Positions 20,825 through 63,941 of a DNA stretch of 64,000 nt are shown one piece after another (positions within the stretch are counted from its first letter, which is position 1; the number at the start of each line of letters is the position of its first letter). The notes below the pieces were generated by a model, which saw nothing but the letters and a program-made list of their open reading frames with translations, was not told the DNA's origin and did not search any database. The position numbers and the translations under genes are program-made. The DNA comes from Candidatus Dormiibacterota bacterium (GTDB lineage Bacteria > Chloroflexota > Dormibacteria > Dormibacterales > Dormibacteraceae): contig JAMXLM010000045.1 of NCBI GenBank assembly GCA_024280995.1, forward strand, positions 80,264 through 144,263, written 5' to 3'.

Positions 20825-20901
20825 TGGTGCCGGCGACAGGATTCGAACCTGCGACTGTCGGTTTAAAAGACCGCCGCTCTGCCAGGCTGAGCTACGCCGG
20901 C
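20825..20901 (-). tRNA. tRNA-Lys (anticodon TTT)
   Basis: Folded by hand. Acceptor GCCGGCG/CGCCGGC, D arm GCTC-AGCCTGGCA-GAGC, anticodon loop CTTTTAA, T arm GCAGG-TTCGAAT-CCTGT, encoded CCA. Confidence 0.9.
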
Positions 20902-23829: not shown

Positions 23830-25461
23830 GTGAGGAGACTCCTCGTCGCCCTCGTGGCCGTCGCCGCTGCCTGCAACCCGGTTCCAAGTCCCGGACCGTC
23901 GCCCGAACCGCTCGCCTCAGATCAGACCCTGAGCTTCCCCATCGCCCAGGACGTCGCCGACTTCGACCCGGCGATGATCTCCAGCCCGGCCGACGTCGAC
24001 ATCCTGCGCAACGTCTTCTCCGGCCTTTACCGCTTCGACTCCCAGCTCAGGGAGGTGCCAGACATTGCCGCAGGCCTGCCGGCGATCTCGGCCGACGGAC
24101 TGACTTACACGTTCCACCTTCGCGCCGGCGCGACCTTCTCGAACGGTGACGCGATCACCGCGGACGACTTCATCTACAGCTGGAACCGCGCGGCGGCCCT
24201 GCAGGGCGACTACGCCGGTCTGTTCGCCGTCGTCGCGGGCTACCAGGCCGTCGCGTCGGGTCGAGCCGCCGCGATGACCGGCCTCGCCAAGGTCGACGAC
24301 ACGACATTCACCGCCACGCTGACGAAGCCCGCAGGCTACTTCCTTGCCGAGGTCGGACTCTGGCCGTTCTGGGTGGTCGACCAGAAGGTGATCGCCGGCG
24401 CCGGCGAAGACGTGTGGTCAACGAAGCCCGAGACATTGATCGGCAGCGGTCCTTTTCGGATGACCGCGCGCTCACCTGGACAGTCGATGGACTTCGCGCC
24501 GGTGGCGAGCTGGTACGGCGGCAAGACCGGGCTCCTGACGCACGTGCACGTCGCCGTGATGCAGGACACCAGCACCCAGGTCGAGCTGTACGAGGCGGGC
24601 GTGTTCAGCCTCATCGGCTACGCCCGCCAGGGGCTGCCCGCAAAGGACGCGAATCGCTACACGACCGAGGCCAAGCTCAAGGGCGAGCTGGCCCTGGTCC
24701 CGTCGGCAACGACGTTCTGGGTCGGCTTCAACCTCCGGTCCGGCCCTTTCGCCGGGGTCGACGCAGGTCGCGGCGGCCGGCACGCCTTCAGCACCGCGAT
24801 CGACCGCCATGCGCTCGCCGACGCTGTCTGCGACGCGATGACGAGCTGCCGCGAGGAGACCGGAGGCGTCATCAGCAAGGGACTCACCGGTTACCTCGGC
24901 GACGGACAGGACCCCAACGTGAAGTTCGACGCGGCGGCGGCGAAAGCCGAGTACGCGGCATGGGATCCGACCGGCGCGAAGGTCAGGGGCCTGAAGTACA
25001 CGTACGACTCGAACCCCTTCAACAAGGCCGTCTGCGCGAACCTGCAGCAGCAATGGCTGAAGAACCTTGGGGTGACGGTCGGATGCGTCGAGATGGACCG
25101 CAAGACATTCTTCGACCAGCGCGACGCGTGCGCGTATCCGATTTTTCGCCAGAGCTGGTCGGCGGATTACGACCATCCGCAAGACTGGTTCGACTACCTC
25201 TTCGTCACGGGCGCGAGCTCAGGGGGTTCGTGCTATTCGAGCTCAGCCGTCGACAAGGCGGTCACCGGCGCGGATGCATCGACGGACCCATCGTCACTCG
25301 ATGACTACAAGACCGCCGGAATGGACCTGATCAGCGACTCCGCGTTCGCGGGACTGCTCTACGGCGTGCAGCAGTACCTCGTGCATCCGTATGTCAAAGG
25401 CGCGGGCGGTAACGCGCTGTACGACAACTCCTGGACCGAGGTTCGCATCCTCCAGCACTGA
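23830..25461 (+). CDS. ABC transporter substrate-binding lipoprotein, family 5 (peptide/nickel type), paralog 1
   Basis: GTG at 23830 (or 23818) gives the lipoprotein signal VRRLLVALVAVAAAC. Family-5 SBP pattern (LRNVFSGLYRFD...GLTYTFHLR...TFSNGD). Paralogous to 26792 and 33906. Confidence 0.85.
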   Translation: MRRLLVALVAVAAACNPVPSPGPSPEPLASDQTLSFPIAQDVADFDPAMISSPADVDILRNVFSGLYRFDSQLREVPDIAAGLPAISADGLTYTFHLRAGATFSNGDAITADDFIYSWNRAAALQGDYAGLFAVVAGYQAVASGRAAAMTGLAKVDDTTFTATLTKPAGYFLAEVGLWPFWVVDQKVIAGAGEDVWSTKPETLIGSGPFRMTARSPGQSMDFAPVASWYGGKTGLLTHVHVAVMQDTSTQVELYEAGVFSLIGYARQGLPAKDANRYTTEAKLKGELALVPSATTFWVGFNLRSGPFAGVDAGRGGRHAFSTAIDRHALADAVCDAMTSCREETGGVISKGLTGYLGDGQDPNVKFDAAAAKAEYAAWDPTGAKVRGLKYTYDSNPFNKAVCANLQQQWLKNLGVTVGCVEMDRKTFFDQRDACAYPIFRQSWSADYDHPQDWFDYLFVTGASSGGSCYSSSAVDKAVTGADASTDPSSLDDYKTAGMDLISDSAFAGLLYGVQQYLVHPYVKGAGGNALYDNSWTEVRILQH

Positions 25462-26791: not shown

Positions 26792-28486
26792 ATGACTCGA
26801 ATCGCCGTGTTCCGTTCCCTCGCCGTGGCGTTGGGAACAATTTCGATGGTCGCGGCCTGTGGAGGAGGCTCTAACAGCAACTCTTCCAACCTGGCCTCCG
26901 ACCAGACGCTCAGCTTCCCGATGGTCGACGACGTTGGGGACCTCGACCCCGCGCACATGTCGGCCGCGGTCGACATCGACATCTTCCGCAACACGTACTC
27001 GGGCCTGTACAAGTTCGACGACCAGCTGAACGAGGTTCCGGACATCGCGACCGGACAGCCTCAGATCTCGTCTGACGGGTTGACGTACACCTTCTCGCTG
27101 AAGCACAACGTCAAGTTCTCGAACGGCGACCCCGTCAAGGCCGACGACTTCATCTTCAGCTGGGACCGCGCGGCCGCCATTCAAGGCGACTACGCATCGG
27201 TCTTCCAGCCCGTGGTCGGCTACGACGCCGTCTCGAACGGCAAGGCCACCCACATGGACGGCCTCAAGAAGATCGACGACTACTCGTTCTCCGCGACGCT
27301 GACCGCCCCGGCCGGCTACTGGTTCACCGAGACCGCCCTCTGGACGGCCTGGGTGGTGGACCAGAAGGTCGTCCTCGCCAACGGCAAGGCGACCGACTCG
27401 ACGTGGGCCAGCACACCTGACACGGCGATCGGCACCGGGCAGTTCAAGATGACCGCCCGCACGCCGAAGCAGTCGATCGACTTCGCGCCCGTCGCCAACT
27501 GGTGGGGCGGCTCGACCGGCACCTTGACCAAGGTGCACATCGAGATCGTCGCCGACCAGAAGGCTCAGCTCACCAAGTACGAGTCCGGCGGTTACAGCCT
27601 GATCGGCTTCGCCAACCAGAGCCTCACCCCGGAGGACGTCATTCGCTACAACTCCGACTCGCAGCTGAAGAAGCAGCTGAACCTGCAGCCGTCCGCTCGC
27701 ACGAGCTGGATCGGCTTCAACCTCTGCGACTCGAGCAACCAGTCGACAGCCTGCAAGGGCCAGAAGCCCAGCCCGTTCGCCGGTAATGGCAACGGCAAGC
27801 TCCTCCGCGAGGCGTTCAGCCTGGCGATCGACCGCAACCAGCTCGTCGATATCGCTTGCTCCAAGGGCACTGCCTGTACGCCGGCGACCGGCGGAGTGAT
27901 CACCAAGGGGCTGAAGGGCTACCTCGGAGACAACACCGACCAGTGGGCCAAGTTCGACGCGACCCAGGCCAAGTCGCTGCTTCAGCAGGCCGGTGGCGCT
28001 GCTGCCGTCGGCAACCTGACTTACACCTACAACGCCAGCGCCATCAACAAGGCGGTGTGCGACAACCTGGCGTCACAGTGGCGCCAGAACCTCGGCGTCA
28101 CGGTCCAGTGCGCCTCCACTGACCGCGCGTCGTTCTTCAACGCGCGCACGAAGTGCAACTACACGATCTTCCGCCACAGCTGGGGCGCCGACTACGACAA
28201 CCCACAGGACTGGTTCGACTTCCTGTTCGACACGAACGGCGGTTCTTCCGGTTCCTGCCTCTCGGACCCCAACATCGACAAGATGTCCCAGGACGCCAAC
28301 CAGAAGCCGCTCAGCCAGTCGCTCGACGAGTACAAGGCGATGAACAAGATCCTCGTCGACAACTGCTACACCGGCAACCTCTTCTACGGCATCCAGCAGT
28401 ACCTGGTTCACCCGTACGTGAAGGGCGCTGCGGGCAACCCGCTCTACGACAACTACTGGAGCGACGTCAGCATCCTTTCGCACTAG
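26792..28486 (+). CDS. ABC transporter substrate-binding lipoprotein, family 5, paralog 2
   Basis: AGGAGG 5 nt upstream of the ATG. Lipobox MVAAC. Family-5 pattern. First gene of the SBP-permease-permease-ATPase-ATPase operon. Confidence 0.9.
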   Translation: MTRIAVFRSLAVALGTISMVAACGGGSNSNSSNLASDQTLSFPMVDDVGDLDPAHMSAAVDIDIFRNTYSGLYKFDDQLNEVPDIATGQPQISSDGLTYTFSLKHNVKFSNGDPVKADDFIFSWDRAAAIQGDYASVFQPVVGYDAVSNGKATHMDGLKKIDDYSFSATLTAPAGYWFTETALWTAWVVDQKVVLANGKATDSTWASTPDTAIGTGQFKMTARTPKQSIDFAPVANWWGGSTGTLTKVHIEIVADQKAQLTKYESGGYSLIGFANQSLTPEDVIRYNSDSQLKKQLNLQPSARTSWIGFNLCDSSNQSTACKGQKPSPFAGNGNGKLLREAFSLAIDRNQLVDIACSKGTACTPATGGVITKGLKGYLGDNTDQWAKFDATQAKSLLQQAGGAAAVGNLTYTYNASAINKAVCDNLASQWRQNLGVTVQCASTDRASFFNARTKCNYTIFRHSWGADYDNPQDWFDFLFDTNGGSSGSCLSDPNIDKMSQDANQKPLSQSLDEYKAMNKILVDNCYTGNLFYGIQQYLVHPYVKGAAGNPLYDNYWSDVSILSH

Positions 28487-32579: not shown

Positions 32580-32936
32580 ATGTCAACGCAGCAGCCAACG
32601 TCTCAGCCAGGAGCAGCGAACCAGAAGCGTTATCCGAAGGAACTCCGGCAGCGTGCAGTGAGGATGGTCCGTGAGGCCATCAAGGAGCAGGGCAGTCCGC
32701 ACGGCGTCATAACCCGAATCTCGATCCAGCTCGGCGTCGGCTCAGAGAGCCTGCGCCACTGGGTCAAGCAAGCCGACGTCGACGACGGCCTGCGAGCGGG
32801 CACCCCGAGCGAGGAGCGGAAGCGGATCCTCGAGTTAGAGAAGGAGAACCGAGAGCTGCGCCGGGCCAACGAGATCTTGAAGGCAGCAGCGTCTTTCTTC
32901 GCGCGGGAGCTCGACCCGCAGCCACCCAGTTCGTGA
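32580..32936 (+). CDS. IS3-family transposase OrfA (HTH)
   Basis: ATG 32580 lies 9 nt after GGGAGG. KRYPKELRQRAVRMV... HTH, followed by a leucine-zipper-like ELEKENRELRRANEILKAA. Confidence 0.85.
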   Translation: MSTQQPTSQPGAANQKRYPKELRQRAVRMVREAIKEQGSPHGVITRISIQLGVGSESLRHWVKQADVDDGLRAGTPSEERKRILELEKENRELRRANEILKAAASFFARELDPQPPSS

Positions 32937-33817
32937 GCTTCGTCGACGCCCACCGCGAGCGCTGGGGAGTCGAGCCGATCTGCCAGACGCTGCAGATTGC
33001 TCCCTCGACGTACTACGCGGCCAAGGTTCGGCGACCGAGTCGGCGCCGGCAGCTGGACCAGCAGTTGAAGCCAGCGGTGAGCCGGGTTCACGACGAGAAC
33101 CTCGGCGTCTATGGGGTCCGAAAGGTCTGGCGACAACTCGGCCGGGAGAGCTTGCCAGTAGGTCGTGACCGAGTCGCCCGTCTAATGCGCGAACTCGGTC
33201 TGGCCGGTGTCGTACGCGGGAAGGTGAAGCGGACGACACTGCCCGGACGCAGTCCGGAGCCAGCCCACGACCTCGTCGAACGCAACTTCAAAGCAGTCGC
33301 TCCGAATCGACTCTGGGTCGCCGACCTGACCTATGTCAGCGCCTGGCCGGGGTTCGTCTATGTCGCTTTTGTGATTGACGTCTTCAGCCGCTATGTGGTC
33401 GGTTGGCGCGTCTCAAATTCGCTGCGTGCCGAACTCGCCGCGGATGCGCTCGAGATGGCGTTGTGGACCCGTCGCGGGAGCCAGCTTGAAGGGCTGGTTC
33501 ACCACTCCGACCGTGGCAGTCAGTACGTCGCTGTCCGGTACACGCAACGCCTGGTAGAGGCCGGAGCAGTTCGCTCCGTCGGGTCACGAGGCGACAGCTA
33601 CGACAACGCGCTGGCCGAGTCGGTGATTGGCCTCTACAAAGCCGAGCTGATTCGCCGGCGCGGACCCTGGCGTTCGCTCGAACAGGTCGAGCTTGCCACC
33701 GCCGAATGGGTTGACTGGTGGAATCGGCGTCGACTCCATGGCGCAAATGGGAACGTGCCGCCGGCGGAGTTAGAGACCGGCTACGCTCTCGCCTGCGACG
33801 CGTCAGGTGTCGCGTGA
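32933..33817 (+). CDS. IS3-family transposase OrfB (DDE/rve integrase core); probably expressed as an OrfAB fusion by -1 frameshift
   Basis: -1 frame relative to orfA and open far upstream. DDE residues in WVADLTY, HSDRGSQY, DNALAES. YY motif APSTYYAAK. Confidence 0.88.
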   Translation: MSFVDAHRERWGVEPICQTLQIAPSTYYAAKVRRPSRRRQLDQQLKPAVSRVHDENLGVYGVRKVWRQLGRESLPVGRDRVARLMRELGLAGVVRGKVKRTTLPGRSPEPAHDLVERNFKAVAPNRLWVADLTYVSAWPGFVYVAFVIDVFSRYVVGWRVSNSLRAELAADALEMALWTRRGSQLEGLVHHSDRGSQYVAVRYTQRLVEAGAVRSVGSRGDSYDNALAESVIGLYKAELIRRRGPWRSLEQVELATAEWVDWWNRRRLHGANGNVPPAELETGYALACDASGVA

Positions 33818-41818: not shown

Positions 41819-42848
<1,030 letters not shown>

Positions 42849-42926
42849 TTAGAGTGTCTCGCCCCTGACAGTCCGGGCATCTTCGCGCCCTCGAATCTGC
42901 GACGGCCTGCGGGAGCGTGACACTCC
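42849..42926 (-). promoter_or_regulatory. structured leader motif, short copy (copy A)
   Basis: In RNA sense: GGAGUGUCACGCUCCC...GCAGAUUCG-agggcg-CGAAGAUGC...AGGGGCGAGACACUCU-AA-GUG. Shares blocks, order and start context with 63720-63941. Confidence 0.6.
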
Positions 42927-42932
42927 GCCAGA

Positions 42933-44258
42933 TTAGAAGGTCTGGTAGAGCAGGAAGACGTTCAGCCCGATGATCAGGGCGGCCACCGCGAAGGCCGCGT
43001 AGTTGGTCAGCCTGCCGTTGGCGAGGCCGTTCATCAGCCGCTTGTCGCGCGTGAACAGCACGAGGGGAATCATCGCGAACGGGATCCCGAAGGAAAGGAA
43101 GACCTGGCTCAAGACCAGCGCCCGCGACGGGTCGAAGTGGATGCCGATCACGATCAGCGCGGGCACCATCGTGATGGCCCGGCGGAGAAAGACCGAGATC
43201 TTGCGCCGGATGAAGCCCTGCATCACGACCTGGCCGGCCAGCGTCCCTACCGATGACGACGAGATGCCTGACGCCAGAAGGGCGATGCCGAATATGACAC
43301 CGCTGTGTGTGCCCAGGTACTGCTCGAAGCCGCCCGCGACCTGGGTCAGGTTGCTGCCGGTGTCGAGCAGACCGCGCGAGTTGAACACTGCGGCCGCCGT
43401 CGTGAGCATCGCCAGGTTGATCACGCCCGCGATGCCCATCGCGATGACGACGTCGACCAGCTCGAAGTGGAAGATCTTGCGCTTCGCCTCGGTGTTGGCG
43501 CCGACGATCCGCTTCTGCGTGAGCGCCGAGTGCAGGTAGATGACGTGCGGCATCACGGTCGCGCCGAGGATGCCCGCGGCCAGCAGGATCGACTCGCGGC
43601 CATCGAGGCTCGGGATGAACGTGTTGCGGGCCACCGAGCCCCAGGACGGGTCCGCGCGGAAAACCTCGAGTCCGAAGGCGATGACGATCAAGCCGACGAG
43701 CCCGGTGATGGTCGCCTCGAGGCGGCGGAATCCCCAGGCCTGCAGGCCGAGGATCGCGAACGCCGCGACGCCGGTCAGCAGCGCGGCGGCGAAGAGCGGA
43801 ATTCCAAACAGGATGTTCAGACCGAGGGCGGCGCCGACGAACTCCGCGAGGTCGGTGGCCATGGCGATGAGCTCGGCCTGAACCCAGAGGAAGTAGACGA
43901 CGGGCAGCGGGAAGCGGTCGCGGCAGATCTCGGGAAGGCTCTTGCCGGTGGCGATGCCGAGCTTGGCGCTCATCGCCTGGATGAGCATCGCCATGAGGTT
44001 GGCGGCCAGCACCACCCACAGCAGCATGTAGCCGTAGCGCGAGCCGCCGGCCATGTTCGTGGCGAAGTTGCCGGGGTCGACGTAGGCGACGGCGGCGATG
44101 AACGCTGGGCCGAGGAACGGGAGGACCGCGCGGATGCCGCGGCGCTCACCGGTGATGGAGCGCTCGGCGGCGCGAAGCACGCGCAGCTCGCCCGGGAGGG
44201 CGTTCTCCGCGCCGACGACGACGGACTGGGCGACGGTCGTTCGGACGAGCTCCGCCAC
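42933..44258 (-). CDS. mntH: Nramp-family divalent metal (Mn2+/Fe2+) transporter
   Basis: DPGNFATN and MPHVIYLHS signature motifs. About 11 TM. Confidence 0.92.
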   Translation of the reverse strand: MAELVRTTVAQSVVVGAENALPGELRVLRAAERSITGERRGIRAVLPFLGPAFIAAVAYVDPGNFATNMAGGSRYGYMLLWVVLAANLMAMLIQAMSAKLGIATGKSLPEICRDRFPLPVVYFLWVQAELIAMATDLAEFVGAALGLNILFGIPLFAAALLTGVAAFAILGLQAWGFRRLEATITGLVGLIVIAFGLEVFRADPSWGSVARNTFIPSLDGRESILLAAGILGATVMPHVIYLHSALTQKRIVGANTEAKRKIFHFELVDVVIAMGIAGVINLAMLTTAAAVFNSRGLLDTGSNLTQVAGGFEQYLGTHSGVIFGIALLASGISSSSVGTLAGQVVMQGFIRRKISVFLRRAITMVPALIVIGIHFDPSRALVLSQVFLSFGIPFAMIPLVLFTRDKRLMNGLANGRLTNYAAFAVAALIIGLNVFLLYQTF

Positions 44259-49114: not shown

Positions 49115-49191
49115 TGGTAGCCCCGGCGGGATTCGAACCCGCGATCTCAGCCTTGAGAGGGCTGCGTCCTAGGCCGCTAGACGACGGGGCC
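49115..49191 (-). tRNA. tRNA-Glu (anticodon CTC)
   Basis: Hand fold: GGCCCCG acceptor (G1-U72), GTCTAGCGGCCTAGGAC D region, anticodon stem-loop CAGCC-CTCTCAA-GGCTG, T arm GCGGG-TTCGAAT-CCCGC, encoded CCA. Confidence 0.85.
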
Positions 49192-49197
49192 GCGATC

Positions 49198-49272
49198 TGG
49201 TGGGCGGCATTGGGTTTGAACCAATGACCTCTTGCGTGTGAAGCAAGCGCTCTCCCACTGAGCTAGCCGCCC
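49198..49272 (-). tRNA. tRNA-Val (anticodon CAC)
   Basis: Hand fold: GGGCGGC acceptor, GCTC-AGTGGGA-GAGC, CTTGC-TTCACAC-GCAAG, ATTGG-TTCAAAC-CCAAT, encoded CCA. 6 nt upstream of tRNA-Glu. Confidence 0.9.
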
Positions 49273-63699: not shown

Positions 63700-63719
63700 G
63701 CGAGCAGATTAACCTTGCA

Positions 63720-63941
63720 AGAGTGTCACGCCCCTCGCGGGCCGATGCAGATTCGCGGCATCGACGGCCGGAGCCAAGGAAAGGGTGGCGCGAGGAGAGC
63801 GCAATACCTTCTGGGGTCCCCGCGCCGTGGTCGCGGGGGCAGCGACGCCGCGCCGGGCCCCCTTGACGTCGGCTTCAGCGCCGCAGGCGCCCGGCCGTCT
63901 AGGCCGCGAAGATGCGCCGTCCGTCGGGGGCGTGACACTCT
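63720..63941 (+). promoter_or_regulatory. structured leader motif, long copy (copy B)
   Basis: 15-bp perfect long-range helix 63720-63734 / 63927-63941. Inner helix 63747-63759 / 63903-63915 with a tandem G.A. Same conserved blocks as 42849-42926. Ends 2 nt before GTG 63944. Confidence 0.6.

Follow-up and report, generated by a model that had tools for sequence, protein, structure and literature searches.

Why should an 84-nt gap interrupt a string of codirectional genes whose other junctions overlap? In the 64-kb stretch of DNA analyzed here (the window), mntR and mntH overlap by 1 nt, the LLM and aidB-like genes by 14 nt, and the aidB-like gene and otsB by 1 nt, as an earlier, sequence-only reading had correctly noted. 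Between mntH and the LLM gene lies a hairpin, which that reading took for the compact and probably minimal version of a leader motif shared with a metE-like gene. We find instead that the gap is occupied by a decaying, internally deleted relic of a hairpin family and is not a sensor or a minimal regulatory RNA. The fuller reading, a decaying member of a Dormibacterota-specific mobile hairpin family (186–260 nt) that is tolerated via translational coupling, we consider probable. The features of the locus are as follows.

42849–42932, minus strand: the 84-nt gap between the mntH stop and the LLM start
42933–42935, minus strand: TAA stop codon of the Nramp/mntH gene (gene identity from Pfam)
42846–42848, minus strand: GTG start of the LLM (Bac_luciferase) gene (from Pfam; N-terminus conserved in homologues)
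42852–42925, minus strand: c1, a 74-nt internally deleted copy (GAGTGTC...GACACTC), from nhmmer half-matches, alignment with the second copy c2, the fold, and the family alignment
42930–42935, minus strand: TAATCT, a −10-like hexamer that shares bases with the TAA stop of mntH and precedes the GUG of c1 by 6 nt
42849–42923, minus strand: proposed relay ORF of 24 codons (VSRSRRPSQIRGREDARTVRGETL), from the GUG of c1 (positions 3–5) to a UAA abutting the LLM GUG

An exact-protein look-up of the LLM protein, with either V or M as the first residue, returned no record.

In the minus-strand RNA sense, the gap reads UCUGGCG-GAGUGUCACGCUCCC-GCAGGCCGUC-GCAGAUUCG-AGGGCG-CGAAGAUGC-CCGGACUGUC-AGGGGCGAGACACUC-UAA, and its sequence, coordinates, and hairpin are as first described. 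The outer arms of c1 (42911–42926 / 42851–42866) pair around an internal A.A mismatch, as had been reported, but the count of 13 of 16 positions (11 Watson–Crick plus 2 G.U) becomes 14 of 16 (12 plus 2) on recounting, a trivial difference; the other mismatch is a terminal C.A. The inner 9-bp helix (42892–42900 / 42877–42885) comprises seven Watson–Crick pairs around a tandem G.A/A.G, the same feature as in c2. The minimum free energy fold of a 90-nt stretch containing c1 is a single long hairpin of −41 kcal/mol (z = −2.79), with 2 of 200 shuffled sequences equally stable. A stable hairpin immediately 3′ of the mntH stop codon is what one would see if the palindrome had arisen by chance or served mntR-mntH as an intrinsic terminator. 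Instead of the GC-rich hairpin and U tract of such a terminator, however, the hairpin is followed by the tail CUAAGUG, with no U tract, and a terminator scan around c1 found none. Against a chance palindrome, the two arms match the family profile in nhmmer (model positions 1–36, E = 0.0045; 153–194, E = 0.00034), and because both halves do so the likeness of c1 to the family is above chance; the motif also reaches the shared ...CTCTAAGTG junction. We regard a terminator or a chance palindrome as extremely improbable.

Exact, three-mismatch, and profile searches of the 64-kb window located one copy besides c1, in the divergent region between a PaaK-like and the metE-like gene (Meth_synt_2 in orthologous loci), giving two family copies within the window.

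63721–63940, plus strand: c2 (“copy B” of the earlier reading), a full-length, P2-expanded member of 220 nt (nhmmer, 131 bits)
63710–63715, plus strand: −10-like TAACCT, 7 nt upstream of the GUG of c2
63944, plus strand: GTG start of the metE-like gene, after the TAA of c2

The minus-strand sense of c1 aligns with the plus-strand sense of c2, so the two copies are oriented alike with respect to the gene downstream, and both end in ...GACACUC-UAA-GUG, the GUG serving as start codon of the LLM or metE-like gene. This alignment and the profile half-matches bear out the proposal that the gap holds a short copy of the motif preceding the metE-like gene. The fold of c2 is far more extensive, with a free energy of −145.6 kcal/mol (z = −6.9).

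Beyond the window, an arm-pattern scan of one genome per species identified 53 loci, nearly all in Candidatus Dormibacterota or “Chloroflexi CF_” soil MAGs, which assigns the window to that phylum; homologues of LLM and PaaK bear the same names. A second sample, anchored on the core of the element and independent of the arm-selected one, came from metagenomes, in which the core pattern had more than 120 matches, of which 80 loci were fetched; the same pattern had no match in viral contigs. A full-length family member has a basal stem of ~50 bp containing the tandem G.A (GCAGAUUCG/CGAAGAUGC), an almost invariant three-way-junction core (GGCCGGAGCCAAGGAAAGGGUGGCGC ... GCGCCGGGCCCCUUGACGCAGGCUUCAG), and variable P2 and P3 hairpins with optional apical expansions of ~+18–26 and ~+40 nt. 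These expansions account for the length classes of 186–197, 212–221, 233–238, and 253–260 nt seen in 45 arm-selected copies. RNAalifold predicted 66 pairs for the family, with 98% of cells paired, and compensatory changes occur in 14 pairs versus 5.2 ± 1.2 in shuffles (0 of 500 as high) and at most 4 in slid controls. On the sense strand G.U outnumbers A.C by 54 to 4, from which we conclude that this strand folds as a single strand, and the orientation of copies is clear in nhmmer (83–200 bits for sense versus 15–33 bits for antisense). The termini of core-selected copies vary with covariation (GAGUGGCGC/GCGCCACUC, CGGUGUC/GACACCG), and the most conserved part of the family is the core rather than the termini, which suggests that the core has a function as RNA or single-stranded DNA.

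Searching Rfam at the gathering score produced nothing relevant for either copy; at E ≤ 10, c2 had no matches and the c1 region had three chance matches, either to the opposite strand or to sequence beyond the element. No description of the family was found in Rfam 15 or the searchable literature, including any report from Dormibacterota or of MITEs at leaderless genes. The arm pattern recovers ~16% of core-selected copies and exact-pattern loci number 1–3 per MAG, so we estimate ~10–20 copies per genome. Many copies are orthologous, and copy counts are therefore not fully independent; non-orthologous loci also bear copies that are 94–96% identical. Recent bursts, which would make copies within a genome more alike, were not seen, similarity being 0.84 within genomes versus 0.82 between them.

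Compared with this family, c1 is a deletion derivative. The view that the compact version defines the minimal motif does not hold, since c1 lacks the whole conserved core and is the sole short version among the copies compared: 45 arm-selected and 73 core-selected complete copies (67 distinct sequences), in which every complete copy other than c1 is at least 186 nt long. What c1 keeps is the basal stem only (model positions 1–36 and ~157–194), the core at ~37–156 having gone, and its junction, GCAGAUUCG joined directly to AGGGCGCGAAGAUGC, is the expected remainder of a single 120-nt internal deletion in a 194-nt copy. That deletion is in-frame. A metagenome search for short c1-like versions (5′ arm, GCAGATTCG, 0–30 nt, GCGAAGATGC) had no matches.

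Relatives show further stages of gain and loss at both sites. At the LLM locus, relatives with a 97% identical LLM carry only a 22-nt stub, GAGTGTCCGGGGTGAGGCACTC, and orthologues at 87–91% identity have no recognizable element. The GACACTC in two of the orthologous loci (L058 and L061) was considered as a sure remnant and then downgraded, because L062 shares TAAGCTGAC without the rest. Remnants elsewhere are different one-off deletions, for example:

L049:2979–3034, minus strand: 46-nt remnant, 5′ arm fused to CGGGACACTC

The GUG of this remnant lies 7 nt after a TAACCT box and in frame with a downstream membrane-protein ORF, of which the relic now seems to be the N-terminus. At the metE-like locus, relatives whose paaK is 87% identical have a 197-nt copy without the P2 expansion, and those at 91% have no element and the sequence TAACCTtgccggGAGTGggtccc (TAACCT-tgccggGA-GTG-GGTCCC), exactly the product expected from a deletion between the 5′ (A)GTG of the element and the (A)GTG of the gene. 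The TAACCT hexamer of c2 is kept in an element-free orthologue (L192). In three loci whose PaaK is 100% identical to that of the window (L189–L191), short-read contigs end inside the element core, suggesting that the family causes assembly breaks in Dormibacterota metagenomes.

Placement was compared across 111 nonredundant copies from Dormibacterota genomes and soil metagenomes. A gene start adjoins the element on the sense side only in 64 copies, on the antisense side only in 19, and on both sides in 10, the remaining 18 having no adjacent gene start. Spacing between element and start was tabulated for the 83 gene-adjacent copies (2 nt, n = 46; 3 nt, n = 16; 0 nt, n = 6; 1 nt, n = 5), the start codon following 0–3 nt after the element in 73 of them. 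The genes downstream encode 64 proteins that match 89 Pfam families, with at most three proteins per family, and are unrelated housekeeping genes such as those for enolase, chorismate synthase, GlpX, TIM, ArsA, TrpRS, and CoaBC.

These data bear on the possibility that the element is a cis-regulatory leader RNA, riboswitch-like or protein-binding and common to the LLM and metE-like genes, whose minimal functional motif would be the 78-nt version. Like a riboswitch or other cis-regulatory RNA in Rfam, the family has a covariation-supported, multistem fold and conserved junction nucleotides in the 5′ UTR; unpaired nucleotides of the core are conserved, the structure is real, the G.U bias is on the sense strand, and 64 of the 83 gene-adjacent copies are sense-oriented directly upstream of a start codon. 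Covarying structure is, however, a property of the full-length members, c1 retaining the basal stem alone without any of the conserved core. The downstream genes share no function or pathway, 19 of the 83 copies are antisense to the gene, close relatives differ by gain or loss of the element, and Rfam yields no matching family even at E ≤ 10. Moreover, LLM and metE-like orthologues that lack the element keep a normal promoter–start geometry. Gene content and orientation thus strongly disfavor a regulatory leader, which we judge to be very unlikely, and the shared regulon or ligand-sensing leader first envisaged for this gap is not supported, given the unrelated downstream genes and the reversed orientation of about a quarter of the gene-adjacent copies.

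In the alternative we prefer, a relic of a mobile hairpin family, placement is considered relative to the promoter. A TAnnnT lies 4–7 nt upstream of the element, at its far end, in 46 of the 83 gene-adjacent copies (background 0–1 per offset), and the spacers before and after the element, when summed, peak at 7–8 nt, within the genome-wide TAnnnT-to-start peak of 6–12 nt. In element-free long ORFs from the same contigs, TAnnnT likewise peaks 6–12 nt upstream of the first start codon, from which it follows that many genes in these genomes are leaderless; leaderless genes thus appear to be common in Dormibacterota. SD-like motifs upstream of first starts in the window and the fetched Dormibacterota loci show a mild enrichment versus the strong one of TAnnnT. 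With −10 boxes assigned by the TAnnnT match only, the element would fill the space between the putative −10 box and a leaderless start. Stop/start junctions within operons hold a few copies, for example both gap-pgk-tpi junctions of one locus:

L027:2788–3022: element in the gap-pgk-tpi operon
L027:4193–4429: element in the gap-pgk-tpi operon

The first two bases of the element serve in the gap stop TGA at this locus, and there is no ATG, GTG, or TTG beside the element for pgk, which may start at a CUG or within the element.

Element-free LLM orthologues read TAAGCT-ccgccgt-GTG, TAAGCT-gactgc-GTG, TAAGCT-gacactcca-GTG, and TATGCT-ctagccg-ATG, a candidate leaderless geometry of −10-like box, 6–9 nt, and start codon. 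By comparison with these, we infer that TAATCT at the mntH stop is the −10 box of the LLM gene, which indicates that LLM-aidB-otsB has its own predicted promoter at the mntH stop codon. A sigma-70 promoter scan around c1, which needs both −35 and −10, found nothing. Of the two roles proposed earlier for the gap, that of marking a separate transcription unit is accordingly borne out as probable by the TAATCT and by the TAAGCT or TATGCT at 6–9 nt from the start in the element-free orthologues.

How a gene could tolerate such an insertion is suggested by the two ends of the element. Positions 3–5 of every standard terminus are GUG, and when a −10 box lies 4–7 nt upstream this GUG(3) is 6–9 nt from the hexamer, the position of a leaderless start. 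At the opposite end, we define the exit frame as the one in which the last three bases of the element (CUC) form a codon, and for 54 of the 56 copies spaced by 2 nt a stop in this frame runs into the host start. It does so as UAAUG, UAGUG, or UGAUG in 40 and as NN-RUG-A in 14, the remaining 2 having neither. About half of element-adjacent starts are preceded by TA versus 3 of 64 element-free leaderless-like starts. Among independent copies without TA, once wrong-side and orthologous cases are removed, ~10 of 12 have A at +4 by hand estimate (p ~0.002), the background being 37.5% of element-free leaderless-like starts.

In either orientation of the element, TA is found between element and start on the start-proximal side only, for which possible causes are selection favoring a stop codon and inversion in situ between the two arms. 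TA as a two-sided target duplication was rejected, as it occurs on the start-proximal side only and the promoter-proximal flank has no consensus.

Between these ends, the GUG(3) ORF spans the whole element to the junction stop in 28 of the 83 gene-adjacent copies, including 11 of the 19 antisense-placed ones. In further sense copies it ends at the P2 loop against an internal AUG (UAG-AUG or UGAUG). This AUG has an AGGAG before it and is in the exit frame, which remains open as far as the gene start. P2-expanded copies, including c2, lack the internal AUG; in c2 the GUG(3) frame terminates within the core, at a UUGA overlap. Because these copies have no such AUG, a single conserved SD-AUG uORF is weakened as the sole explanation. 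The antisense strand is largely stop-free in general, with 35 of 64 copies open where it is not the mRNA strand versus 15 of 19 where it is (p = 0.07), so that open frames alone argue for little; the idea that antisense-placed copies in particular are selected for an open antisense frame was considered and set aside at this p value. The reading frame is preserved in all three remnants (c1, L054, and L049). In c1 the order is TAATCT, a 6-nt spacer, GUG, 24 codons, UAA, and the GUG of LLM, and the L054 stub reads GUG UCC GGG GUG AGG CAC UCU AAG UGA, overlapping the LLM GUGA.

We propose that the elements, moved by some enzyme, would come to lie either in the short interval separating the −10 box from the start codon of genes that are otherwise leaderless or at stop/start junctions within operons. 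Transcription would then start at the first bases of the element, and the GUG at positions 3–5 would take the leaderless start position. Ribosomes would translate through the element, with some copies restarting at the internal AGGAG...AUG, and would terminate at a stop overlapping or abutting the host start (UAAUG, UAGUG, RUGA). The host gene could thereby be translated by termination–reinitiation, as proposed for mycobacterial MIRUs and here adapted to leaderless promoters. The relay step itself, with ribosomes passing through the element to the host start, we hold to have roughly even chances of being correct on the present sequence comparisons; a basal stem whose stability reaches about −100 kcal/mol or beyond could make the 5′-terminal GUG inaccessible unless translation is cotranscriptional. 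Within this scheme, c1 probably serves the LLM-aidB-otsB unit as a relic leader and mini-ORF, that is, a short translated leader rather than a sensor, because it has lost the core and kept the −10-like box and the frame.

The same junctions could be read as those of a host-domesticated processing or stability module, in which the stem is cut (e.g., by RNase III) to give a near-leaderless mRNA and/or a stable RNA of ~190 nt, the junction stops being incidental. Whichever its orientation, the element does place a perfect terminal duplex against the start codon, and a functional RNA, once released, would suit both the conserved core and the folding signal of the sense strand. The RNA of Neisseria Correia elements is cleaved by RNase III (PMC2229807, PMC2649163), and the element studied here is kept at orthologous loci across species. 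Cleavage would nevertheless leave unexplained the stop-codon statistics (the 54 of 56 overlaps, and the excess of A at +4 in copies lacking TA) and the frame-preserving remnants, and a coreless c1 would have no reason to persist. We consider such a module unlikely, and retain the reading of c1 as a relic of a mobile family tolerated through coupling.

Among known systems, the closest parallels are MIRUs and MITEs. As summarized in PMC12548453, MIRUs (Supply et al. 1997) are inserted at start codons and contain an ORF coupled to the host gene, the stop/start overlap with the host gene being thought to make the insertion expression-neutral, and consist of 40–100 bp direct or tandem units inside operons. 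The Dormibacterota elements resemble MIRUs so described in being small non-autonomous repeats at start codons, in having an internal-ORF stop that overlaps the predicted host start (54 of 56; UAA abutting GUG in c1), and in belonging to a host group that is likewise rich in leaderless genes. They differ in forming a single palindromic hairpin of 186–260 nt with a three-way junction, whereas MIRUs are direct or tandem units without a covarying fold, and in lying mostly between the −10 box and a leaderless start while supplying their own 5′-terminal GUG.

The MITEs Correia/NEMIS, ERIC, RUP, and YPAL are similar in size (100–250 bp), in the pairing of 5′ and 3′ ends into a long hairpin, and in having many copies, presence/absence between strains, cotranscription with neighbors, and frequent ORFs (PMC2229807, PMC10969869). 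The Dormibacterota family, at 186–260 nt, likewise has no transposase, has terminal inverted repeats (the GAGTGTC.../...GACACTC pair), occurs as multiple dispersed copies per genome, and is present or absent at orthologous sites, as at the LLM and metE-like loci. In contrast to these MITEs, whose TIRs are conserved and whose two ends are each flanked by a duplicated TA, its termini covary, its interior core is invariant, and its TA is one-sided, and its position of insertion, from the predicted transcription start site to the start codon, is far more stereotyped. The 20–40-nt palindromes, or palindrome doublets, of REP/REPIN elements, mobilized by RAYT, differ in size and lack the three-way junction seen here. 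By analogy, the best reading is that the family behaves as a non-autonomous repeat of the MITE/MIRU type. The analysis turned up no transposase, reverse transcriptase, or autonomous relative, and an autonomous IS with the termini of the element was not seen in the 8-kb flanks. We tentatively go further, with somewhat less than even confidence, and suggest a previously undescribed class of mobile element that specifically colonizes the +1 of leaderless genes and is rendered harmless by its own GUG and relay ORF, the core serving as an RNA or ssDNA handle for mobilization and c1 being a frame-preserving relic.

For the window, the analysis removes a false minimal riboswitch-like motif. In its place stands an uncataloged, structured repeat family in an uncultured soil phylum, with no match in Rfam or the literature. 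Its placement rules would constitute a natural experiment on leaderless translation and termination–reinitiation, and would illustrate how selfish DNA can settle in the zero-length 5′ UTR of a leaderless gene and yet leave that gene unsilenced. The elements also appear to break assemblies and can mislead the annotation of gene starts in Dormibacterota MAGs.

Several other features of the window were noted.

32888–33004, plus strand: ALIL pseudoknot (RF01497, 71 bits), a frameshift signal of IS3-family transposases
20828–20901, minus strand: tRNA gene
49118–49191, minus strand: tRNA gene
49201–49272, minus strand: tRNA gene
24136–25459 and 27116–28484: diverged duplication of ~1.3 kb

The pseudoknot places an IS element in the window, and no relation between it and the hairpin family was seen. 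The three tRNA genes score 63–69 bits against the Rfam tRNA model. The two halves of the duplication share 70–84% identity at a spacing of 2989 nt and are probably two tandem paralogous genes.
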